DNA from: a virus
Virus genome (UHGV): UHGV-0293664
Reading direction: 5' to 3' (one strand)
DNA: 64,000 bases
Part shown: one piece after another, positions 31,976-64,000 of the stretch
Layout of the letters: each line of letters starts with the position of its first letter
Numbering within the stretch: the stretch's first letter is position 1
Made by a program: the position numbers and the translations under genes
Notes under the pieces: generated by a model
Seen by the model: only the letters and a program-made list of their open reading frames with translations
The model's database searches: none
Told to the model about the DNA's origin: nothing

Positions 31976-32476
31976 GTGAAAATTAAGATCTTTGCTATTA
32001 TTTTGAGCGCATTTTTATCGCTGCCTGTTGTTGCAGCACCAAAACAAAAAGTATATCATACTTGCAAGCCCTCAGATACTAAGGAAAACATTCTGGCATG
32101 CAATATCTACAGGGAAGCTAGAGGGGATGGCACGATGGGTATGCTGGCATCTGGGTTTGCCACACTAAACAGGAAATCTCACCCCAAATACCCAGACACT
32201 ATAAGAAAGATCGTCTACCAACCTAACCAGTTTTCGTGGACAAACCACGGCAAAACTTTTAAGGTGACAGAAAAAGATTCATGGGATCACGCTAAAAGTC
32301 TTGCAAAGATGCTTCTAAAGGTCTATAATAACAACCATGTTGCATACATGGCTATGGATATAACAGGTGGAGCAACACACTACCATACAACCAAAGTACG
32401 ACCGAAATGGGCAAAAAAGATGCAGAGGACAGCTCAATTCGGGAACCATATCTACTACAAGGAGCGCAATAAATGA
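31976..32476 (+). CDS. Secreted cell-wall hydrolase, SleB-like
   Basis: GTG start after GGAG; signal-peptide-like N-terminus; YREARGDG...NR...YQPNQFSW motif. Confidence 0.55.
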   Translation: MKIKIFAIILSAFLSLPVVAAPKQKVYHTCKPSDTKENILACNIYREARGDGTMGMLASGFATLNRKSHPKYPDTIRKIVYQPNQFSWTNHGKTFKVTEKDSWDHAKSLAKMLLKVYNNNHVAYMAMDITGGATHYHTTKVRPKWAKKMQRTAQFGNHIYYKERNK

Positions 32477-34455
32477 TCGTAAACAGTAATGAAACTAAAG
32501 CGGTACTGACCGGGAATATGGAGGTCACCAGGGGCTCAATTTCTCTGAACAAAGAGACTTTTGGGCTAATCATTAAAGGGATTTACGAAGATAAGGTGCT
32601 GGCAAGCTGCCGTGAACCAATCTTCAATGCTGTGGACTCCCATGTTGAGTCTGGACGGGGTGATGTACCGATCATCATTCACTCTCCTACAGACCTTGAA
32701 CCATACTTCTTTGTGCAGGACGTTGGATTGGGCATGTCAGAAGAGATGGTCCGTAACACTTTCATGAACCTCGGGGAGTCAACCAAGCGCAACAGCAACG
32801 CCCTGGTTGGCAATAAAGGTGTTGGTTCAAAGGCCCCGTTCAGCATGGTGGACACTTTCGATGTGATCAGTGTGCACAATGGGGTTGAAAGCACATATCT
32901 ATTGTTCTTGGATCAGGGTATCCCAAACGTTACCAAGATCCGCGAGCGGAAGACCGAAGAGCACAATGGGGTAAAAGTTCAGTTCCATGTTAAGAAAGAG
33001 CATGTTCTGAAATATCGCACTGCTATTGCGTCATGCCTACGCTATGCAAAGTTTCCGTTTACCGTTACCGACCCTATGACCAGTAAGATGCTGGAAGGTG
33101 ACAAGGTTGAGGCGCAGTATCACTACGAGAAGGATGGTTGGAAAATGACCATCCTGAAAGGTTATACCAGCTCTGATGAGAGCCGTGTGGTGATGGGACA
33201 CCAACCTTACCGCTCTAAGTTCCTGGAAACATTGACAGACTACCCTGCAATCTGTGTGGAGATCCCTATCGGGGATTGCAATATTAACCCTGGGCGCGAA
33301 TGGACCATAGAGGGTCACGACGATGGTGGATTCCAAGAGCGTCTGGAGGCTTTTGTCAAAGAGGGTATCCGTCTTCGTGGGGCAGAAGTTGTTGCGGAAT
33401 TGGAAACAGCAAAAACATCCTCAGAAGCACGCGAAATGATGAAGAACAGCGGAGTGTTCGGGCACATCTTCGGTAAGAATTTTATGTGGGAACGATGGGA
33501 AGAGACAGGCCTAGGAAATTTGGGGGACTGTGAGATCTTCGCTGGCGGCTTAAATAAAGGCCGCATAGGTTACGCTTGTTACGGAAAGGTAGAATTCTTA
33601 CGGGGAGTCTATTTAGTATTTAACGACGGAGACGGCAAATATAACCGAAATAAGTGTAACTACTTAAGCGAGATCACCGGACGCAACGTTTTCTATTGCC
33701 GGAACACGGATCTGGTGAAAGAGTTTAAAGAGGCGGCACACCATCCGTTCTTTGCAGATACGATCAAATTGTTATCAGAGCTCCCTCGCCGACCTGCGAA
33801 GAAAGGTGAAACAAAAACTCATTATGAGCCAGGCTATTGGGTTAAAAAACTTGAGGATGATGGTTACTTCCGTCGTGAGCGTATTACTAAGGCAGAGTTC
33901 AAGAAGATTAAGCACTGCATTCCTTATGAGGGCGATATCCAACGTGGAAGTTGTTGGCTGGGACAGCTGAGTAACATCTACCAGCAAAATTATGACCGTG
34001 TGCGTGCGGCACTCCAAATTCCTGAAGGTGAAGATCTGTACTTGGTATCAGAATCTCGTCTGCTTTGGACTGATCCTGATTGCCAGTATGTTACAGAGAA
34101 GAGTGTGGAACATTTGTTGAAAGAGGATGCTTGGAAATTCTTACTGACTCGCGCAGCAAATGAAACCTCATATGACAGCCTGTATAGACAATTAGGGAAA
34201 ATTATCCCCATGCAAGATTTTGGAAATTATCGGCCACATTTCCACAAGTGGGAAGGTAACACCGCGTGGAAGCACAGTGAGCTAAATCATCGTGCCAAAA
34301 TCTTAATCGCCAACCGAGTTAAGTGCGGGAAGGCCTATATTGCAAGATTGGAAAAGAAATATCCACTTTTGAAGCATGTGGGCTTGAAATATTGGGACAC
34401 TCCTGCTATGATTGAATACCGTGAACTGATTGATACAAAGAATAACACCAACTAA
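32473..34455 (+). CDS. rIIA: rIIA-like protein with GHKL ATPase domain
   Basis: REPIFNAVDSH resembles T4 rIIA RELITNMIDAH; DVGLGM and GNKGVGSKA G-boxes. Confidence 0.6.
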   Translation: MIVNSNETKAVLTGNMEVTRGSISLNKETFGLIIKGIYEDKVLASCREPIFNAVDSHVESGRGDVPIIIHSPTDLEPYFFVQDVGLGMSEEMVRNTFMNLGESTKRNSNALVGNKGVGSKAPFSMVDTFDVISVHNGVESTYLLFLDQGIPNVTKIRERKTEEHNGVKVQFHVKKEHVLKYRTAIASCLRYAKFPFTVTDPMTSKMLEGDKVEAQYHYEKDGWKMTILKGYTSSDESRVVMGHQPYRSKFLETLTDYPAICVEIPIGDCNINPGREWTIEGHDDGGFQERLEAFVKEGIRLRGAEVVAELETAKTSSEAREMMKNSGVFGHIFGKNFMWERWEETGLGNLGDCEIFAGGLNKGRIGYACYGKVEFLRGVYLVFNDGDGKYNRNKCNYLSEITGRNVFYCRNTDLVKEFKEAAHHPFFADTIKLLSELPRRPAKKGETKTHYEPGYWVKKLEDDGYFRRERITKAEFKKIKHCIPYEGDIQRGSCWLGQLSNIYQQNYDRVRAALQIPEGEDLYLVSESRLLWTDPDCQYVTEKSVEHLLKEDAWKFLLTRAANETSYDSLYRQLGKIIPMQDFGNYRPHFHKWEGNTAWKHSELNHRAKILIANRVKCGKAYIARLEKKYPLLKHVGLKYWDTPAMIEYRELIDTKNNTN

Positions 34456-42156: not shown

Positions 42157-44930
42157 GTAATTGGTGCTTCGACTTGGAGGCCTCCGGGCTTTTGGAAGAC
42201 CCAGATCTTTATTATCACTGCGGTCTGTTTAAAGAGCTGAATAAGAACCGTTTTATGCTGTTCCTTCCTCTAAATGACCGCACACACTACTCCGAGGAGG
42301 ATATAGAGAAGGCTAAGAACTTTATTCTGGCAAAGAAAACTCTTTATAAAGATTTTGAAGTTCGCATAGCAGATTTTTCGGAGTTGGAAGGTTGGCTTAC
42401 AGGCAATTCCGACTGGTCACCAACAGCTTTGAACTGCCATAACTGCTACAGTTATGACTTTATGCTAATGGAAAGATTGTCCGGTATTCATTTTGATATG
42501 TTCCGTGATCCTAAATGCATGGGGACTATCAACGACCACCAGGTTAACCTGTTTGATACGTTGGCGATGAGCCGAATCTTGTGGCCTGATCGCCCTTTAC
42601 CAAAAGGTTGTCCGGACTCTGTATTCAACCCGGTTACTAAGAAAATGCAGCCTGTTGGTCCTCACGGCCTTATGGCATGGGGCTACGCCCTTGGTAACCA
42701 GAAAGTTCAAATTGATGACTGGCGTGATCTTCCGTTGTGGAAGTATGTGGATCGTGTATTCGAGGACGTTATCATCCAAGAGCTGCTCTGGAAAGAGCTG
42801 GTAGCGGAATCAAAAGGTGTATTCTACGGCAAATCTGACATGCAGAACTTTATGTACGATCCTGCCAAAGAGAAGCCGAAAGGGTTCAAGAAGATCACCT
42901 GGAAGAACGCATTACGCCGAGGCATGCTGCAGCACTTCCTGATGGAGCTGCAGGCCCGTCAGGGTGTGTATTTCGACATAGATGGAGCTATTGCTTTACG
43001 TGACCGTTGCGATGCGTGGATGAAAGAGATCGCTGATCGTGTTGAACCTCAACTTCCTTTAAAAGAGTTGTCAATGTCTCAGCGGCCCAAGTTCCCTGAA
43101 AAGCCGTTTAACCAAGATGGGACAATCTCCAATAATGGTTGGAAATGGTTAAAAGATAAGCTTGGCTATCCTGTGGACATGAGCGCTTTAGAGTTCAAAG
43201 CCCCGCCTAAGCGAGCATTTACCTCCACAGGGGATGTCAGTAAGATGGGGATAAAGTGGTGTGAAGAGATGGGCTGCAAAGACCCAGATAAGATGGCTGA
43301 TTTCTTGAGAGGCTATATTAAGGGCACCTCCACACCACAACCTTTACCTAAAGAGCTAATGGATCAGGCAATAAGTGATCTACAGCAGAAGCGAATGCCG
43401 GACTGCAAGATACCTATGAAAATCAGCAATCAGGACGACATTAAGAGATACCTGATCAGTGCTGGTTGGCTTCCGACAATGTGGAGAACTAAGGATGTAA
43501 CTAAAGACAGCAAGAAGAAAGCTCTACCTGATGCAGATGTTGATGCACGAGTGTATGCATATATGGACGAGCTTTTAGAGTCAGAGTATTGTGACCTAAT
43601 TATCAACTTCTGGAACAAAACTGATGCTAAGTTCCAGACAACCGTGCACAAGTTCCGAAGCTTTCCTAACTCTGAAAGGATTAAAAAGGAAGTATTCGGG
43701 AAAATACGTAGAAAAGCTAGGACACTTATTACTTCTCCGCAGCTGAAAGATACGTTTGGACACCTATGCCCGAATCTTGAAAAATTGAACGGGGAGATGG
43801 CTAAAGATATCGTCTTGTGGTTATCATTGCGAAACCGCAGATCGGTCCTTGATCCAATCAAGGAGGATAAGGTTGATACTGGTCTTCTTAATCACCCACG
43901 TTTGAAGATTGACCATAAGCTTCCGGCTAAAAGCTCTGGATTAACAAACACTTCCAGACAGAAACACAGTATTTGTGCAAACATGCCTAAACCATCTCCT
44001 AAAGTGGTTATGGGTAAAGAGATGCGCAGTCTGTGGGGTGTTCCTCCAGGATACTTTGAGATCGGTATTGACGGGTCCAACTTAGAGCAGCTTATCGGGG
44101 CTTGGGGTGCCTTTGAGTTCGACAACGGCTTGTATTATGATGTTGTAAGTAACGGGGACGCACACCAAAACAATGCTGAGGCATATACAAAAGTAGCAGG
44201 CAGAGAGGTGTCTCGTAACGACGGTAAACCTATCACGTATGGGGTTATGTATGGGGCACAAAAAGACAAAGTTGCAGACATGCTGGATATCTCCCCAGAG
44301 TTGGGACAAAGGGTAATCGATGCACTTTGGGATGCCAACCCCGGTCTTAAGGGGCGTAAAGAAGATCTGGAGAAATTCTGGGAAGCAACGGGTAAGAAGT
44401 TTATCTACTCTTTTGATGGTCATGCTATCTGGACCCGATCTAAACACTCTTTACTTAATGCATACCAACAGAATGGTGGTGCATCGTTGTGTGACTTAGT
44501 TGGGATACTCATGCACCACCAAATGGTGAAGCGCGGGTGGTACGATGAAGGTGTTCGTCGTATTATTTATTACCATGACGAATATCAGCTTCAAGTCCCT
44601 GACACACCTAAGTATAAGACTGTGTACACCTTCGACACAATTGAAGAACTGGAAGCATTTAAGGCAGAGCAGGAGGCCAAACTTCATGTGTTCGACGGTC
44701 ATAAGTACAAAAAGGCACGCAAGGATGAGGACGGAAACGAAGTGGTTGACAGAGACGGAAACACGGTGTACGATCCTATCCTGAACGATGACGGAAAGCT
44801 TGAACTTATCTGGAGCCCTGTGGGTGAAATGGTGGTGCATTGCTTCTGGCAAGCTTCTAAAATGATGGGAGTCCCGTTCCAGATCACAGGTGAATACTTG
44901 TGCGGTCGTAATTGGGGTGATTGTCACTAA
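42153..44930 (+). CDS. Family A DNA polymerase with 3'-5' exonuclease domain
   Basis: Exo I FDLEASG; K...YGVMYG motif B-like; YYHDE motif C-like. Confidence 0.8.
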   Translation: MSNWCFDLEASGLLEDPDLYYHCGLFKELNKNRFMLFLPLNDRTHYSEEDIEKAKNFILAKKTLYKDFEVRIADFSELEGWLTGNSDWSPTALNCHNCYSYDFMLMERLSGIHFDMFRDPKCMGTINDHQVNLFDTLAMSRILWPDRPLPKGCPDSVFNPVTKKMQPVGPHGLMAWGYALGNQKVQIDDWRDLPLWKYVDRVFEDVIIQELLWKELVAESKGVFYGKSDMQNFMYDPAKEKPKGFKKITWKNALRRGMLQHFLMELQARQGVYFDIDGAIALRDRCDAWMKEIADRVEPQLPLKELSMSQRPKFPEKPFNQDGTISNNGWKWLKDKLGYPVDMSALEFKAPPKRAFTSTGDVSKMGIKWCEEMGCKDPDKMADFLRGYIKGTSTPQPLPKELMDQAISDLQQKRMPDCKIPMKISNQDDIKRYLISAGWLPTMWRTKDVTKDSKKKALPDADVDARVYAYMDELLESEYCDLIINFWNKTDAKFQTTVHKFRSFPNSERIKKEVFGKIRRKARTLITSPQLKDTFGHLCPNLEKLNGEMAKDIVLWLSLRNRRSVLDPIKEDKVDTGLLNHPRLKIDHKLPAKSSGLTNTSRQKHSICANMPKPSPKVVMGKEMRSLWGVPPGYFEIGIDGSNLEQLIGAWGAFEFDNGLYYDVVSNGDAHQNNAEAYTKVAGREVSRNDGKPITYGVMYGAQKDKVADMLDISPELGQRVIDALWDANPGLKGRKEDLEKFWEATGKKFIYSFDGHAIWTRSKHSLLNAYQQNGGASLCDLVGILMHHQMVKRGWYDEGVRRIIYYHDEYQLQVPDTPKYKTVYTFDTIEELEAFKAEQEAKLHVFDGHKYKKARKDEDGNEVVDRDGNTVYDPILNDDGKLELIWSPVGEMVVHCFWQASKMMGVPFQITGEYLCGRNWGDCH

Positions 44931-44946
44931 TGTAAACTATCAACAC

Positions 44947-45264
44947 ATGGAAGTGTTGTTGAGCAAAGAGGAGACTTTTATGGTAGTAGAACCAACAAAA
45001 ACATTTACATCCATGACTATTCCTGTTATTATGCAGGTGGAGTGTGTTCAGGTATCTCAAGTGTGGCCTGGCACCAAAATCCCGACAGGGCCTGATTTCT
45101 TTCAGGTTGGCAAAGTGTACAATGTCTGGAAGGCACCAGATTGTTACCCTTTCATCAAAGATGACCGTGGGATGCTGTGGTATCTTGGAAATGATTTGAC
45201 ACTGCACCTTGGGAATGCTATTATTGCAGTATTCAGACTTAACAAGAAGGAGACTGATCAATGA
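44947..45264 (+). CDS. Small protein, dispersed paralog family
   Basis: 105 aa from ATG 44947; IKDDRGMLWYL motif. Confidence 0.5.
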   Translation: MEVLLSKEETFMVVEPTKTFTSMTIPVIMQVECVQVSQVWPGTKIPTGPDFFQVGKVYNVWKAPDCYPFIKDDRGMLWYLGNDLTLHLGNAIIAVFRLNKKETDQ

Positions 45265-45488
45265 CGACTTTGGTTAAAGCTACCTTTGTAGAAGAAAAGA
45301 TGACAGACCTGTCATTCTTTAAAGAAGGAAAGACCTACGAGGTTTATTACGATAAAGCTCGTGCAAATAAAATGATTAAAGACGAGGAAGGGGTTGCCTG
45401 GCTTATCTCCCATCTGGCAAACGGTGAGTATCATATCTACGGAACCACCCTGCTTGCCAAGTTTGTAGCTGTTGAAGAGGACCTATGA
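45261..45488 (+). CDS. Small protein, dispersed paralog family
   Basis: 75 aa; ATGA overlap; IKDEEGVAWLI motif. Confidence 0.5.
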   Translation: MTTLVKATFVEEKMTDLSFFKEGKTYEVYYDKARANKMIKDEEGVAWLISHLANGEYHIYGTTLLAKFVAVEEDL

Positions 45489-47743: not shown

Positions 47744-48109
47744 ATGGAACAAATGAACGATCAAACGTCGGTTGCGATGAACGAGCAAGAACAACCTCAA
47801 GAATTTTTCTTAGGGTTAAGTAAAGATCAAGTGTCTCTTCTGCTAGTGCTTTCTTCTTTCATGGGAAGACTTCAGGAGCTTACACAACAGCCAGAGGCTG
47901 AACAATTATTCCAGGCTCTGCGTGAAGAAGAAAAATATCGTCGTTTGGACTATGCCTTAGGTTGGGTAGCTCAACAACGAGATATGCTGATGGCCCTCTC
48001 TGGGACCACAAGTTTTGCAATGGGCCTGTTGGCTCAAGTTCAGGACAAATTAATTCAAGCAGGGTTTGCACACACGGCAAACACTAACGAAGAACAAGGA
48101 GACAAATAA
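47744..48109 (+). CDS. Hypothetical protein
   Basis: 121 aa; stop overlaps SSB-like start. Confidence 0.5.
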   Translation: MEQMNDQTSVAMNEQEQPQEFFLGLSKDQVSLLLVLSSFMGRLQELTQQPEAEQLFQALREEEKYRRLDYALGWVAQQRDMLMALSGTTSFAMGLLAQVQDKLIQAGFAHTANTNEEQGDK

Positions 48110-49335
48110 TGAGCGTTATTCAACAATTCGCTAACCCGATGAATCCGCGTGAAACTGTTTTACTGGCTCACGGCATGATTAAACGTGTCAGCATCAAGCC
48201 TATCAAGGGTGCTGATCCTACAACAGGTATTAAAACCACTGTGTGGCAAGGTAAGAAAATTGAATCCAGCCACACCATCTCTTTACTGATTTCTGAACTG
48301 GATTCCTCTGATAACCTGCTTCAAGGTGGTGAAGAAGTTTGGATCAGTATGGGTGATAAGCTGCTTAAACCTGGTCATCAAGACTCTGTCTCTGTTAAAA
48401 TTGATGACAAGTGGGAAACCGTAACGCCGGGATGGATCGTAAATATCCCTTTGAAGGCAAACGAGCATAAAGGTAAGACCTATTACAAAGGCTCACTGGC
48501 TAAGATGGTCAAGCTGGGTGCAGGAGAGGCTCCAGCAGCGACTCAGCAGCAAAAACAGCAACAAGGTGCACAATCACAAGGCCAGAAGCAGAAACCTCAG
48601 CAGAATGCCAATCAGGACGTTTTACGCATCTATGGTGATGTGACTCAGATTGTTGGCAACGTGGTTACTGTTAATGACCACAAGATTGGCGAAGGTGCTA
48701 TGGTTGTCACTGATGAGCAGCTTAAAGACCTGGTGGTAGGTGGTCGTGTTGCAGCCATTGTTGACAAAGACACCGGAAACATTATCAGTGGTTTCAAAGC
48801 CTACCCACCTAAGGAAGAGAACGGCACTCAAGGCTCTGGTGGCAAGCGTAAATCCTCTTACGACCCTATCGGTGTGGAAACGGGGCATAGCATCAATGCG
48901 TTGCAGATCATCCTGGATCGCGGGTTTAAGGTAGACGACCCACTGGGCGTGGCTAAAACACTGCACGTAGTCACCATTGAGCTTAAGAAAGAGTATGCTC
49001 AAGCCACCAACCGAACTGAAGATGAAGTAGGTGCCAGTGTCGGTAATGCGGTGTTGAACGCTTGTCGCCGTATTGACAAGAAAACGAAAGTTGATGATTT
49101 TGCAGCGGCAATTACTGCAGAAGCAAAAGATGTCTTGACTAATCTGGCTGAGCCGTTGTACGATTGGATCAAGAACGGTGCTGGGTCAACTGACCATCAA
49201 GAACCTCAGGCTGCCAAACAGGAAGCAGCTCCACAGCAAAACACTGTAGACGCTCCTCCTGTAAATGATGAGGAAGATGACCCAATGGATCAGAATCCAG
49301 CACAGTACGCCTTTGATGATGACATCCCTTTTTAA
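48109..49335 (+). CDS. Single-stranded DNA-binding protein-like
   Basis: 408 aa; Gln-rich linker; C-terminal DDDIPF matches the E. coli SSB tail tip. Confidence 0.55.
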   Translation: MSVIQQFANPMNPRETVLLAHGMIKRVSIKPIKGADPTTGIKTTVWQGKKIESSHTISLLISELDSSDNLLQGGEEVWISMGDKLLKPGHQDSVSVKIDDKWETVTPGWIVNIPLKANEHKGKTYYKGSLAKMVKLGAGEAPAATQQQKQQQGAQSQGQKQKPQQNANQDVLRIYGDVTQIVGNVVTVNDHKIGEGAMVVTDEQLKDLVVGGRVAAIVDKDTGNIISGFKAYPPKEENGTQGSGGKRKSSYDPIGVETGHSINALQIILDRGFKVDDPLGVAKTLHVVTIELKKEYAQATNRTEDEVGASVGNAVLNACRRIDKKTKVDDFAAAITAEAKDVLTNLAEPLYDWIKNGAGSTDHQEPQAAKQEAAPQQNTVDAPPVNDEEDDPMDQNPAQYAFDDDIPF

Positions 49336-50176: not shown

Positions 50177-50602
50177 ATGACCTATGAAATGCCAAAACTG
50201 ATTCGTGACGATGCCCAAAACGCCCACACCTTTATCATGGGCAAACGCATGGATATTATTTGTCATAAAGATTTCTGGGAAGGAAGTTACTTCACAGAGT
50301 ATTTTGGTAAACTGGACAATGGTCTGCTGATCCAGTTCTACACCGATGCGGAAAACAACATTCACTGGGAGTTCGAAACTGAAGATATCCATAAACTTTT
50401 CACCTTCCTCGGTATTAAGGTTGAGGCCAAGTTTGAAGAAGGTGAGTGCGACGATTGTGGATTCTATGAGGTAACAGATTTCTATCTCCCGAGTGGTGAG
50501 AACCTTTACTATGAAAGCCACTTCGGTAACTCCAATATGCCACAGTGCTGGACTGAGTTTTTTGAAATTGCGGAAGAGGAGCTGGCATACCGTGATTATT
50601 GA
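50177..50602 (+). CDS. Hypothetical protein
   Basis: 141 aa; GGAG RBS. Confidence 0.5.
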   Translation: MTYEMPKLIRDDAQNAHTFIMGKRMDIICHKDFWEGSYFTEYFGKLDNGLLIQFYTDAENNIHWEFETEDIHKLFTFLGIKVEAKFEEGECDDCGFYEVTDFYLPSGENLYYESHFGNSNMPQCWTEFFEIAEEELAYRDY

Positions 50603-51050
50603 TACTGTAGAGGGGGATTTAATCTCCCTTTTTAAGAGCGGTGCTGGTCACCTGATCCACGGTTGCAACTGCTTCCACACAATGGGCAAGGGGATAGCAA
50701 AACAGATCGCCCGTGAGTTCCCTCAAGCACTGGCAGCTGACAAAGAGACCAGACATGGTTGCCTAAGTAAACTGGGCGCGTTCTCAAGATGGGAGCACTT
50801 ATCTCCGATAGGTATTGTCTACGGAATAAATCTGTATACTCAGTTCTACCCAGGGCCTAATGCTGAATATTTCTCAATCCTGAAAGGCTTTGAGCGAGTC
50901 AATGAGGTATTCGAGGGATCGACTTTACCATTCTACATCCCTAAGATCGGGTGCGGCATAGGCGGTTTGAAGTGGGAACACGTAGAGGACGTTATTAACC
51001 TTGCCACTTTCGACATAGATATTGTCGTGGTGGAGTACAAAAAGTGTTGA
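50592..51050 (+). CDS. Macro-domain (ADP-ribose binding/processing) protein
   Basis: GTG start after GAGGAG; GAGHLIHGCNCFHTMGKGIAKQI and IGCGIGG resemble macro-domain glycine-rich motifs. Confidence 0.5.
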   Translation: MIIDTVEGDLISLFKSGAGHLIHGCNCFHTMGKGIAKQIAREFPQALAADKETRHGCLSKLGAFSRWEHLSPIGIVYGINLYTQFYPGPNAEYFSILKGFERVNEVFEGSTLPFYIPKIGCGIGGLKWEHVEDVINLATFDIDIVVVEYKKC

Positions 51051-52361: not shown

Positions 52362-52551
52362 GCTTAAATCTGCATGGAACATCGCTGTGGGGGACGAGAT
52401 CCGTATCCCAGGTGGAAAGACCATTATGAAGATATCTCGTATCGAGTACGAAGGTGATCGTGTATTTCATATCTTTGCAGAAGATGGTCGAGAAATTTAT
52501 ATACAGGCAGGCTCTCACATCTATATCTGTAAGAAAGGGGACGACAAATGA
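52354..52551 (+). CDS. Small hypothetical protein
   Basis: 65 aa from ATG 52354 with AAGGAGGG RBS. Confidence 0.45.
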   Translation: MFKLKSAWNIAVGDEIRIPGGKTIMKISRIEYEGDRVFHIFAEDGREIYIQAGSHIYICKKGDDK

Positions 52552-52880
52552 CAGAGATCATCGTTTCAACTGCAGGGTATGTATTCCTGACAATCATTGC
52601 GTTGGCTATTCTGGTGGCGGTGTATGGATTTGTTATCCTGCCTATTCTTGAGACATTTAGTTTGTGTCGGTGTTGGAGAAAAGCTTACGGACCACAACCG
52701 TGGAAAGACTGGTTCCATTTGGTGCGTATAGCGTTCTCTTATGCCTATGACCACTCTAGCAGTGCATGCGTAACTGGGTACCATGCCTACAACTGGAACT
52801 GGGAAGGGCTGGGGAGATGGACTGTTACAAAAACTATACCCTTACGGTTGTACAAAGGAAAGAACACACTGGGAGCCTGA
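52548..52880 (+). CDS. Small membrane protein
   Basis: 110 aa; two N-terminal hydrophobic helices; ATGA overlap. Confidence 0.5.
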   Translation: MTEIIVSTAGYVFLTIIALAILVAVYGFVILPILETFSLCRCWRKAYGPQPWKDWFHLVRIAFSYAYDHSSSACVTGYHAYNWNWEGLGRWTVTKTIPLRLYKGKNTLGA

Positions 52881-52909
52881 TATTTTAAGTTATCAGGTTG
52901 CCAGAGATC

Positions 52910-52945
52910 AGGAGGATTTCTAAAATGGATTTCCTCCTTTTGATA
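52910..52945 (+). terminator. Possible terminator at operon end
   Basis: AGGAGGA...TCCTCCT stem with 15-nt loop then TTTTG. Confidence 0.35.
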
Positions 52946-53191
52946 TTTTACCTGCCAGGATATTTTAAAATCCTTAGAAAATCAGAAAATGGATCGAAAA
53001 CTAAAATGGATTTTTCAGGGCAGGCACGACGAGATGAACCACTCATCCTGTCGTTTGCACCATATTCCAGACCACCATTACAGATTTCCCGCACATGCTT
53101 ACATCCTTCTACTGGAACTTCCTCCGCTTGCCCTTGACCTTTTATGGTAATAATCCAACCACTATCTTGAAGTTGCGATGCAGCTTTTCAG

Positions 53192-53354
53192 GTACTCGAT
53201 CTGTTTTTCGTTTCAAAGATTGAATTTTCTGAAAATTTTTCTCGATAAATTTCTCAGTACTCGATCTGTTTTTCGTTTTCTGAATCGGATTTTCTGGAAA
53301 TCGTTCCGGCTCTCGACCTGAAATTTTTGGGGACGAAATCGATTTTTCGTTTTC
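53192..53354. repeat. Iteron-like direct repeats, three copies
   Basis: Repeat unit TCGATYTKTTTTTCGTTTTC at 53192-53214, 53257-53280 and 53334-53354 in AT-rich non-coding DNA. Confidence 0.7.
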
Positions 53355-53481
53355 AGAAATGGATTTTTAAAATTTCTATATGGGAATATTTTATGGGATA
53401 CTGTTTTATAGGAAATTGTTACGGAGGGTAATTAGCGTGCTAATTAAATTTATGAAATGCGAGGAGTTCTCATTTAGAATT

Positions 53482-53500
53482 TTGAATGATAATCATTCTC
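53482..53500. promoter_or_regulatory. Fur-box-like palindrome A
   Basis: TTGAATGATAATCATTCTC matches 15 of 19 positions of the E. coli Fur consensus; contains perfect palindrome GAATGAT-A-ATCATTC. Confidence 0.4.
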
Positions 53501-53514
53501 GTTTGCAGAATAAC

Positions 53515-53538
53515 GGGCACCCCCGGTGATTGTCTCCC
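53515..53538. repeat. GC-rich conserved element, copy 1
   Basis: GGGCACCCCCGGTGATTGTCTCCC; related copies at 53655 and, inverted, 62331. Confidence 0.6.
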
Positions 53539-53617
53539 GGCCCCTGTTGCCCCGGCTTGTTATTATAGTATCACACAGGACAAAGAAAGCAAGGACTTTT
53601 TGCATAAATTTTTAGAC

Positions 53618-53636
53618 GATAATGATAATCGTTCTC
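53618..53636. promoter_or_regulatory. Fur-box-like palindrome B
   Basis: GATAATGATAATCGTTCTC matches 17 of 19 positions of the Fur consensus. Confidence 0.5.
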
Positions 53637-53654
53637 ATTTCATGCAGCGCCCAT

Positions 53655-53692
53655 CCCCGGTGGTTGTCTCCCCCGTCACCGGTGCCTGCCGT
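53655..53692. repeat. GC-rich conserved element, copy 2
   Basis: CCCCGGTGGTTGTCTCCCCCGTCACCGGTGCCTGCCGT; reverse complement of 62331-62378 is near-identical. Confidence 0.6.
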
Positions 53693-53844
53693 CCTTTCGA
53701 TATGTATATTGTGCCACCTGGCGGGGCCGCTGTCAACACTTTTCAAAAAATTTTTCTAACCTGATGCGCTAACCGTTGCAACCTGGCGGGGCCAGCCTGG
53801 CAGGTCCGCGTTATAAAGTAAACAGCTACGGAAGAGGTACAAAA

Positions 53845-53994
53845 ATGAAAGGTAATGCTACTCGCCTGGAAAATGTAGTAATTGATGATACGGAAGCTAT
53901 CGCCCTGGTCGAGAAGGTTGAAACGGAAGCGCGGGAACATAAAGAAGAGTACGAAAAAATGGTAGTTAACCTGGCGGGGGCGATTCTATCATAA
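53845..53994 (+). CDS. Small hypothetical protein
   Basis: 49 aa from ATG 53845 with GAAGAGG RBS; first gene after the non-coding island. Confidence 0.4.
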   Translation: MKGNATRLENVVIDDTEAIALVEKVETEAREHKEEYEKMVVNLAGAILS

Positions 53995-54094: not shown

Positions 54095-54292
54095 ATGAAC
54101 GCCTACGGAATTAAAGTACGTCGCAACACCCGCCAGGTGGTCACCGATCAAATGGTTTGCCGGGTGGATGTAACCATCAACAACGGGCAAGGCCTTTATA
54201 AATTTCGTCGCGGTCATAGCTATACCCTGCAGCAGCTTAATCGTTGCGCCCTGACAAAAGGTCAGATCAACCACTGGTTTAATAAAAAATAA
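54095..54292 (+). CDS. Small basic protein
   Basis: 65 aa; GAGAGGA RBS. Confidence 0.5.
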   Translation: MNAYGIKVRRNTRQVVTDQMVCRVDVTINNGQGLYKFRRGHSYTLQQLNRCALTKGQINHWFNKK

Positions 54293-62330: not shown

Positions 62331-62378
62331 CGGCAGGCACCTGGCGACGGGGGGAGACAATCACCGTGGGTGCCTGTC
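62331..62378. repeat. GC-rich conserved element, copy 3 (inverted)
   Basis: Reverse complement aligns closely with 53655-53692; GGCAGGCACC...GGTGCCTGTC can form about a 10-bp stem. Confidence 0.6.
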
Positions 62379-63644: not shown

Positions 63645-63662
63645 TTTCTTAACTGAATTATC

Positions 63663-63690
63663 AAGGGGCTTAAAGGCCCCTTTCTTTTTG
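63663..63690 (+). terminator. Rho-independent terminator
   Basis: AAGGGGC-TTAAAG-GCCCCTT hairpin then TTTCTTTTT. Confidence 0.7.
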
Positions 63691-64000
63691 TCTGCTCTTC
63701 TCCTACCATAAACGGCCCTACCTGGCAAGTGGAATAATTGACTAGCCATCAATCCCACACACTGTACAAATATACATGGAAAATAACTATTGCATAATTT
63801 TTCATTGTGTGGTAGCAAGTCCATTTTTACCCGTTTTCTCTCCCAAAATTGCACGTAATGCCGCTATTGCACAAATTTTAACCTGATGCACATCTCCAAT
63901 ATCTTGTCAACAACTAAAAATCTTTATAAGTCATACACTTACACAGCATCGAAAGCGTGTTCTACGCGAAAAATCGAGTATAACTATAGCCGCCAGATCT

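Follow-up and report, generated by a model that had tools for sequence, protein, structure and literature searches.

The window analysed here, a stretch of 64,000 nucleotides of viral DNA, comes from a Vequintavirus (rV5-like E. coli myophage): it has about 95% identity to more than 100 Vequintavirus phages and is collinear with 27.3-93.1 kb of Bas54/MaxBurger. Within it lies a gene-free island of 965 bp (52881-53845). The + strand genes 5' of the island encode rIIA, rIIB, helicases, a T7-type primase-helicase, a PolA-type polymerase and many small ORFs; the last of these genes occupies 52548-52880. On the 3' side follows an array of small early genes, the first of which starts at 53846, and each of these genes has a near-consensus sigma-70 promoter (window scan; also rV5 Table S4). 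An earlier note on this DNA had described a non-coding island of about 950 bp between the replication module and the small-gene array, in close agreement with the measured length; it had also called the island AT-rich, which is accurate over the repeats (58-77% AT) but not at 53018-53190 and 53510-53810. The proteins flanking the island gave no Pfam or functional PHROG matches, and our literature searches found no description of the island module. A host or plasmid source for the sequence was considered and rejected, with no match in 5,426 E. coli genomes and a sole match among plasmid origins that proved to be a mislabelled phage genome.

The features of the island and its left edge, in window coordinates, are as follows.

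52878-52968, + strand: three GATATTTT boxes (52879, 52942, 52960), from the repeat finder
52911-52950, + strand: terminator-like hairpin GGAGGA...TCCTCC followed by TTTTGATATTTT; folding -15 kcal/mol, z -3.16
52960-53017, + strand: left conserved block with RAAATGGWTTTY motifs at 52985 and 53003; identity 0.977 in 10 Vequintaviruses
53018-53190, no strand: variable spacer; identity 0.729, 1- and 2-nt indels, no frame open across strains
53189-53256, + strand: repeat unit 1, with GTACTCGATCTGTTTTTCGTTT, GATTGAATTTTC and GAAAATTTTTC in order; E 9.5e-8
53255-53330, + strand: repeat unit 2, with GTACTCGATCTGTTTTTCGTTTTC, AATCGGATTTTC and GAAATTTTTG in order; E 1.4e-8
53328-53385, + strand: repeat unit 3 (degenerate), with GACGAAATCGATTTTTCGTTTTC, AAATGGATTTTT and AAAATTT in order; E 3.9e-6
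53362-53455, no strand: AT-rich DUE-like stretch of low duplex stability
53456-53474 and 53485-53503, no strand: two 19-bp palindromic boxes, 29 bp apart, the second being AATGATAATCATTCTCGTT
53515-53553, - strand: GC-rich hairpin E1 with loop GAGACAAUCACC, just downstream of P_L1; homologues in all genera
53562-53592, - strand: candidate leftward promoter P_L1, TTGCTT, 19 nt, TATAAT; suboptimal spacing, read by eye
53621-53639, no strand: third palindromic box, AATGATAATCGTTCTCATT; core matches the 19-bp Fur consensus at 17/19 positions
53650-53695, - strand: second GC-rich hairpin copy E1', from the repeat finder; z -1.76
53708-53736, - strand: predicted leftward sigma-70 promoter P_L2, TTGACA, 17 nt, TG-n-CACAAT; 10/12 plus TG extension

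Repeats, boxes and leftward promoters

The three copies of a 20-mer on which the earlier note was built are real, with spacings of 65 and 74 bp given by the repeat finder. The 20-mer is found in the 64 kb at 53196 (2 mismatches) and 53261 (0 mismatches), against an expected number of 0.04; the third copy (53336-53354, ATCGA-TTTTTCGTTTTC) was missed by gapless search because it needs a 1-nt deletion, and the third unit has 60% identity in the repeat finder. The 20-mer is the head of a longer bipartite unit of about 45 bp, present three times (53189, 53255 and 53328), each unit carrying two GATCG-type subsites about 21 bp apart plus an A-tract/T-tract. The consensus of 23 aligned units from 8 genera is GGgttCTCGATCg.tTTTTCaattTc.aaAtcGtAtTtt, usually followed by GAAAAAATTTTT. 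A profile built from these units, the window's own three copies included, gives three matches in the window (53189-53234, 53255-53299 and 53328-53371), the next match having E > 1; when the window and the whole 136-kb Bas54 genome are searched, the three units are recovered and nothing further appears below E = 0.4. Apparent second places in the genome were rejected as self-offset matches of the tandem units.

The second repeat class in that note, AAAATGGATTT, is likewise genuine, with exact copies at 52922 and 53003, one with a single mismatch at 53356, and degenerate copies at 52985, 53218 and 53282; all three exact RAAATGGWTTTY matches of the 64 kb are within the island. In both Vequintavirus and Henunavirus AAAATGGATTT makes up the latter half of every unit, and it is repeated separately in the left block (52960-53017), the position of which is taken in other genera by GAAATGGTTTTC motifs. 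Its first copy (52922) sits in the loop of the terminator-like hairpin at 52911-52950. In the alignment of other Vequintaviruses, compensatory or wobble changes preserve the pairing of this stem, and the hairpin probably closes the upstream replication-module operon. Three GATATTT(G/T) boxes are found at the equivalent place in Mydovirus, Seunavirus, Certrevirus and ABPH49, and boxes of this type recur in a second insertion-free non-coding region of Bas54. The spacer at 53018-53190 appears to be free of constraint.

In duplex stability, positions 53362-53421, directly to the right of unit 3, rank lowest among all 60-mers of the 64-kb window (-63.7 kcal/mol, compared with a mean of -79.3 and an sd of 4.1, a difference of 3.8 sd). 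In the 136-kb genome of Bas54 the corresponding 60-mer ranks fourth from the bottom, the four least stable falling at three loci only (132.7-132.8 kb, 93.4 kb and the island), and a low-stability segment is present at the equivalent junction of units and boxes in other genera. The island contains no DnaA boxes, the count for the whole window (24, with 19.4 expected) being at chance level. A resemblance of GATCTGTTTTTCG to the 13-mer of E. coli oriC was discarded, as 41 occurrences with 33.5 expected are not above chance.

The 19-bp boxes have a 29-bp period in every genus examined and resemble Fur operators in sequence. Boxes of the island type match 10-14 of the 14 core positions of the 7-1-7 Fur box (TGATAATnATTATCA; in E. 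coli GATAATGATAATCATTATC), the box of phage 4MG having a perfect core, and no other DNA is as well conserved between phages that infect different gamma-proteobacteria. When both strands of the 64 kb are searched, 53618-53636 is the sole place with three or fewer mismatches from the Fur consensus (2 mismatches; expected 0.01). However, in the box consensus, TGAGAATcATTCTCA, T/A gives way to G/C at symmetric positions (about half of the left halves, most of the right halves), a departure from the NATWAT hexamer rule of Fur, and the 29-bp arrays are unlike known Fur operators.

At the position homologous to P_L1, seven other genera have TTGCAA or TTGACC, a spacer of 16-17 nt, and TATATT or TATTAT, and promoters homologous to P_L2 are found in all 10 genus-level loci, with hexamers kept and spacers varying. 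The predicted leftward promoters point into the AT-rich element, which lies 100-190 nt downstream of the P_L1 start, and no conserved ORF or other coding function is found downstream of them. One GenBank record annotates the box/hairpin units as tRNA-Met and tRNA-Ile, for which ARAGORN and Rfam give no support; an apparent covariation within Vequintavirus (GGGCAcc/gtTGCCC) fails when read pair by pair.

Conserved promoters that lead into no ORF raise the possibility that the island is a non-coding RNA locus, in which one or more functional RNAs would be transcribed from the leftward promoters and the RNA would be needed rather than the DNA. The candidates are the promoter-proximal hairpin, with its conserved loop GAGACAAWCACC, and a GC-rich element of about 110 nt in other genera (element 2); examples of a role would be a put-like antitermination leader, a sponge or a primer. 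The hairpin is found three times in the window behind sigma-70-like promoters (53553-53515, 53695-53650 and 62334-62378), the indel lengths in element 2 are not divisible by three, covariation is seen at one stem pair (A-U in 10 sequences, G-C in 9), and some stems, judged by eye, are kept by G-U pairs that are possible in the leftward sense only. Nevertheless, the structural support is weak, also for hairpin E1: one consensus fold reaches -17.4 kcal/mol (covariation term -0.28) and that of the hairpin family -0.5 kcal/mol, with single-sequence z-scores from +0.7 to -1.8. Searched with E values up to 1, Rfam had no match to the window region or to nine related loci, and ARAGORN found none; element 2 is missing from Vequintavirus, and the units are DNA-like motifs (direct repeats, A-tracts) that have no conserved RNA pairing. 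A functional RNA as the essence of the island is quite unlikely in our judgement.

Conservation, coding potential and transposon insertions

Among ten Vequintaviruses, mean pairwise identity is 0.955 for the units, 0.93 for the AT-rich stretch, 0.95 for the boxes and hairpins, 0.98 for the left block and 0.73 for the 173-bp spacer, with values of 0.84-0.96 for the flanking CDS; the units and boxes are therefore conserved to the same degree as coding DNA, and not more strongly. The flanking genes can not be aligned at the DNA level across genera, yet the motif order recurs. It consists of three GATATTT boxes, two or three GAAATGGTTTTC motifs, the variable spacer, three units 63-78 bp apart, the low-stability stretch, two to four 19-bp palindromes with a strict 29-bp period, a GC hairpin with loop GAGACAAWCACC, a leftward sigma-70 promoter, a second GC-rich element, a second leftward promoter and the first rightward early promoter. 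The full order is present in Mydovirus, Seunavirus, Certrevirus, Henunavirus and ABPH49, where the units are identical in number (three) and orientation and similar in spacing. In phAPEC8 (Stephanstirmvirinae) three different repeats (AAAATTTAAAGTTTA) stand at the unit location, and Aeromonas phage 2L372X has two units. Absence of the repeats from related phages, which would have spoken against a function, is not what is seen, as the ordered motif set is kept in at least eight genera.

That the island holds no convincing ORF is upheld by its conflicting annotation in 10 GenBank records, in which the ORFs differ, lie on different strands or are absent. The equivalents of bas54_0100, bas54_0101 and bas54_0102 do not conserve start, frame and length among relatives. 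The bas54_0100-equivalent ORF starts with ATG, GCG, GTG or ATA and is frameshifted by a 2-nt insertion in YP-6; that of bas54_0101 begins with TTG and is cut short by a stop codon in FV3 and YP-6. The bas54_0102-equivalent ORF has 92 codons here, is open throughout Vequintavirus and has about 88 codons in CR3, but only 7, 25 and 26 codons in Mydovirus and Seunavirus.

Insertion data are available from HIDEN-SEQ, a Himar1 Tn-seq study of phage Bas54 (bioRxiv 10.1101/2025.11.20.689424). The entries of its gene table for the island and its neighbours are these.

bas54_0099, last gene before the island: 18/21 TA sites hit, Non-essential
bas54_0100, window 53175-53321: 1/3 TA sites hit, not classified (NA)
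bas54_0101, window 53327-53431: 0/11 TA sites hit, Essential
bas54_0102, window 53486-53764: 5/15 TA sites hit, Strong fitness defect
bas54_0103, first early gene: 12/14 TA sites hit, Intermediate
bas54_0104-0109, early genes: 91-100% of TA sites hit, Non-essential

In this table the genes that flank the island have 85-100% of their TA sites hit, up to 27/27. All 11 TA sites of bas54_0101, none of them with an insertion, correspond to window 53368-53429, within the AT-rich stretch. Window 53200-53500 is equivalent to Bas54 81.5-81.8 kb, and a further 22 TA sites, at Bas54 81,181-81,463, fall in no annotated gene. Between bas54_0134 and bas54_0135 the authors describe about 2 kb of intergenic DNA that is free of insertions (bioRxiv 10.1101/2025.11.20.689424), and the text passages and supplement covered here contain no discussion of the island. 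Two “essential or strong-defect hypothetical genes” of the phage Tn-seq map, bas54_0101 and bas54_0102, are thus almost certainly not genes but a probably indispensable DNA or RNA element. The earlier suggestion of a functional array of sites has strong support: ordered motifs in at least eight genera, units unique in the genome and resistance to insertion relative to the neighbours make the repeats part of a conserved cis-acting DNA platform, which is probably essential for the phage.

Himar1 may be biased against protein-bound, AT-rich, curved DNA, and the depletion could partly reflect protection of such DNA, for example by H-NS, and not lethality. Taken to its extreme, this bias, together with the degenerate state of the third unit, would make the repeats a product of chance or a decaying duplication without function, and the Tn-seq gap a technical artefact. 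We consider this very improbable, as motif order and number persist even between genera in which alignment of the flanking genes is lost at the DNA level. The 173-bp spacer next to the units is free to drift, and selection can thus be seen to act on the rest of the module.

A different use of the platform would be to control early transcription, as a hub at which a repressor or activator (a phage protein or host Fur) acting on the 19-bp boxes, the GATATTT boxes and the units would switch divergent early promoters, P_L leftward and those of the early genes rightward. Such a hub might pair with a second non-coding region 12 kb away, the two bracketing the early-gene array. The island is situated exactly at the start of the small-gene array with its consensus sigma-70 promoters (rV5 Table S4; CB7 paper), P_L2 and the first early promoter stand back to back in other genera, the boxes form 29-bp arrays immediately downstream of P_L1, and the only places genome-wide with 19-bp boxes and GATATTT motifs are the island and the convergent region described below. 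However, in the HIDEN-SEQ gene table the flanking early and middle genes tolerate insertions, and their regulator should therefore be dispensable; the strongest depletion is at the AT-rich stretch and units, not at the promoters, and the units are restricted to the island, being absent from other promoters. On balance, transcriptional control as the main function is unlikely.

The convergent region and the lambda-like iteron locus

Two further loci of the genome bear on the interpretation. The first is a convergent non-coding region at Bas54 92.8-95.3 kb, the second insertion-free region in the HIDEN-SEQ data. The 514-bp terminal repeat of the Mydovirus KPP-1 (PMC9862379) has its sole match in Bas54, a weak one, in this region, i.e. 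in a region other than the island. The convergent region also holds the only other genome copies of the 19-bp boxes, as well as GATATTTG boxes. Vequintaviruses have been reported as circularly permuted or headful, and no reported pac position for Vequintavirus was found in the literature.

These observations allow the island to be considered as a packaging or DNA-end site, either a recognition array for the terminase small subunit or a boundary for stepwise genome entry, acting together with the convergent region, which holds the termini in Mydovirus. Two motif classes are common to the island and the region homologous to the KPP-1 terminal repeat, and insertions are depleted according to the gene table. 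Three bent repeats in an indispensable non-coding site are also a property of lambda cosB (R1-R3) and SPP1 pacL, and the early genes that separate the two regions, an array of 10.6 kb or about 8% of the genome, are reminiscent of the first-step-transfer DNA of T5. Unlike cosB and pacL, however, the island is far from the terminase genes (about 80 kb), the termini of the related genus are in the other non-coding region, where the KPP-1 repeat matches, and permuted or headful genomes argue against a fixed entry boundary. We hold a packaging role for the island to be decidedly unlikely.

The second locus, at Bas54 132.2-132.85 kb and outside the window, resembles the origin of lambda. It encodes Bas54_0212, a 116-aa wHTH protein with a PF13730 match that is named “replication initiation protein” by PHROG and RefSeq, and directly after the gene come four 21-22-bp iterons (TAACTGTCCGTGATACGGACAC), beyond which lies the least stable and most AT-rich DNA of the genome. 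In tblastn searches the initiator is limited to Vequintavirus (119 records), and insertions in bas54_0212 and bas54_0213 are tolerated with reduced read counts (17/20 and 4/7 TA sites in the gene table). By its sequence signature this locus is the most canonical origin candidate, and it is genus-specific and not essential. It also lies at the cumulative GC-skew minimum of Bas54. Skew analysis, which the earlier note had put forward as a check, finds no extremum at the island, with the cumulative minimum of Bas54 at 131-133 kb and the maximum at 95 kb; the rV5 genome paper, where the origin was sought by skew, reports that skew changes only follow the direction of transcription. An origin located elsewhere, named in the same note as an argument against its reading, is thus indicated in so far as the signature of the lambda-like locus goes. 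Two essential window proteins were rejected as initiator candidates: one of 408 aa is SSB-like, its family consensus ending in DFDDDIPF, and one of 117 aa is restricted to Vequintavirus.

A candidate transcription-gated origin

When compared with known systems, the island appears most like the transcription-primed origins of T7 and T4, with some features of iteron origins added. At the T7 primary origin and T4 oriF(uvsY) and oriG, one or more promoters fire into an adjacent AT-rich unwinding element, an arrangement matched by the island, and T7 also offers a similar replisome, as Bas54 is annotated with a gp4-type primase-helicase and a PolA-type polymerase. The island differs in its promoters, which are of the host sigma-70 class with operator arrays and a leader hairpin downstream, in the three long bipartite repeats beyond the AT-rich stretch, and in that its module resists insertion, whereas the T7 and T4 origins are individually dispensable. 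With iteron origins (lambda ori and its O protein, pSC101, P1 oriR and T4 oriE) it shares direct repeats of one orientation beside an AT-rich segment, and its palindromic operators near a promoter are reminiscent of IR1/IR2 of pSC101. The spacing is not that of iterons: each unit measures about 45 bp and the next follows at 65-78 bp, in contrast to tandem repeats of 17-22 bp spaced regularly by about 20-22 bp, and a spacing of about 21 bp is seen only between subsites within a unit. Nor does an initiator gene adjoin the island, the sole wHTH initiator being about 50 kb away with its own iterons. Although the adjacent unwinding element agrees, repeat size and spacing and the lack of an adjacent initiator set the island apart, and it is not classified here as an iteron origin.

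We suggest the following mechanism. The early promoters P_L2 and P_L1 would be used by host RNA polymerase to transcribe leftward through a short leader hairpin, and the 19-bp palindromic operators with their 29-bp period would gate these transcripts, the binder being either host Fur or a phage protein. Transcripts that pass would reach the DNA that melts most easily in this region (53362-53455) and, in the manner of the T7 primary origin and T4 oriF/oriG, either separate the strands there or remain as an R-loop primer. Just beyond, the three bipartite units, with their GATCG-type subsites and A-tract/T-tract bend, may bind a protein that organises the loading of the primase-helicase, in this case the T7-like enzyme.

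According to this proposal the island is a candidate transcription-gated origin, and the ancestral one of the whole Vequintavirinae lineage, which we put forward tentatively, as a possibility with somewhat less than an even chance. Packaging is plausibly served at the convergent region, where the KPP-1 terminal repeat matches, so that replication would be the essential cis function left to assign. An origin is favoured since it accounts for all parts of the module, and since the module is as widespread as the replisome genes, both being found across the subfamily, while the lambda-like initiator is known in Vequintavirus only and its locus is dispensable. The origin reading of the earlier note thus stands in part, with a DUE-like segment, leftward promoters into it and subfamily-wide conservation on its side, and skew, a rival locus and unit spacing against it. 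More specifically, the canonical combination of wHTH protein, iterons, least stable DNA and skew minimum lies elsewhere in the genome, and the island has no skew extremum, no adjacent initiator gene and no DnaA boxes. Insertion depletion is not specific to an origin either, because phage origins are often individually dispensable. The remaining probability falls to functions beyond those considered here.

A genome with more than one origin has a precedent in the Vibrio phage ICP1, which replicates from a theta origin in mid-genome and from another one close to its packaging site (Barth et al. 2020, PMC7145576). ICP1 is, like the phages described here, a large lytic myophage with related replication proteins, and several special non-coding loci are found here too; there is, however, no sequence similarity or synteny, and the region of ICP1 around 60 kb has no comparable gene-free island.

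Cocktails for therapy and biocontrol make wide use of rV5-like phages (Vequintavirinae), the replication origin of which has so far not been defined; the island, the lambda-like iteron locus and the convergent region are three concrete non-coding loci to which attention can now be directed. Cis elements of this kind are relevant to phage engineering, where they mark places in which payloads should not go, and to minimal replicons and the timing of replication in lytic phages. The Fur-box-like arrays raise, in addition, a possible link to host iron status. In its most far-reaching form, which we regard as a long shot, the island would be the indispensable ancestral origin of the whole subfamily, its firing gated by a host Fur-type operator array; Vequintavirus would have added a dispensable lambda-type origin, and the shared operators would mark the packaging/terminus region, with one host-sensing protein coordinating both. 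If this were true, phage replication would be tied to the iron status of the host, and a single host-sensing protein would coordinate replication with packaging.

Palindromic boxes and the convergent gene-free region

Across phages of Escherichia, Klebsiella, Salmonella, Cronobacter, Pectobacterium, Erwinia, Proteus and Aeromonas, the best-kept DNA is that of the Fur-box-like 19-bp palindromes of the island, whose 29-bp period is strict in all genera. Window positions 53618-53636 agree with GATAATGATAATCATTATC at 17 of 19 positions. Palindromic 19-bp boxes, together with GATATTTG boxes, are common to the island and a convergent gene-free region at the end of the window. The published Bas54 transposon sequencing study (Himar1 HIDEN-SEQ; bioRxiv 10.1101/2025.11.20.689424) reports no insertions in this region, where the surroundings of the KPP-1 (Mydovirus) 514-bp terminal repeat also have their only match, a weak one. 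The motif ACCTGGCGGGGC is found four times, where 0.14 copies are expected, with an inverted copy at 54129.

53456-53474, 53485-53503, 53621-53639: Fur-box-like 19-bp palindromes
53716, 53781, 53969, 60863 (+): ACCTGGCGGGGC
63645-64000, continuing beyond the window: 2.5-kb convergent gene-free region (Bas54 92.8-95.3 kb; 42786-45297 of the Bas54 segment L012)

Hairpins and GC-rich elements

A GC-rich hairpin whose conserved loop is GAGACAAWCACC is present in three copies, each with a sigma-70-like promoter just upstream. These may be a family of leaders or small RNAs, for which covariation support is weak.

62334-62378 (+), 53553-53515 (-), 53695-53650 (-): hairpins with GAGACAAWCACC loop
about 2620-2760 in each of the island-homologous loci L014 (OY978796.1) and L015, and in 16 IMG/VR loci (L026-L041): conserved GC-rich element of ~110 nt, ACGCCACCCCACGGCGAAAAGGCGGGGCTAAC...GGATCGCCGGTAG

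The ~110-nt element follows the candidate leftward promoter P_L2 in genera other than Vequintavirus. The element has indels of lengths not divisible by three and one covarying stem pair, which is A-U in 10 sequences and G-C in nine; an Rfam search with it gave no match. In OY978796.1, box/hairpin units (L014 2504-2657) are labelled tRNA-Met and tRNA-Ile; these labels are probably misannotations, since neither ARAGORN nor Rfam finds a tRNA there.

Origin candidate outside the window and proteins upstream of the island

A locus in Bas54/MaxBurger, found only in Vequintavirus, comprises a wHTH "replication initiation protein" gene, then four tandem 21-22-bp iterons (TAACTGTCCGTGATACGGACAC) and, after these, the genome's least stable DNA. 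It coincides with the cumulative GC-skew minimum of Bas54 and is a textbook candidate for a lambda-type origin; the transposon study scores it as non-essential and bas54_0087 as essential. The latter, annotated as "hypothetical", is probably the phage's single-stranded-DNA-binding protein: it carries a Gln/Gly/Pro-rich linker, and its family consensus terminates in WDFDDDIPF, which in E. coli SSB forms the C-terminal tip. A gene whose product matches the Macro domain sits upstream of the island, in the group of small genes there.

Bas54 132224-132850 (32224-32850 of its segment L013): wHTH gene, iterons and unstable DNA
48109-49335 (+): 408-aa protein bas54_0087
50493-51050 (+): protein matching the Macro domain (E 3e-6) and the PHROG family "phosphatase"

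Vequintavirus sequences under other names

Between 16 and 18 GenBank records named "Campylobacter phage" (MG0656xx) have about 95% identity to E. coli Vequintaviruses, and the 137,565-bp "E. coli plasmid" CP057073.1 of PLSDB is a Vequintavirus genome.
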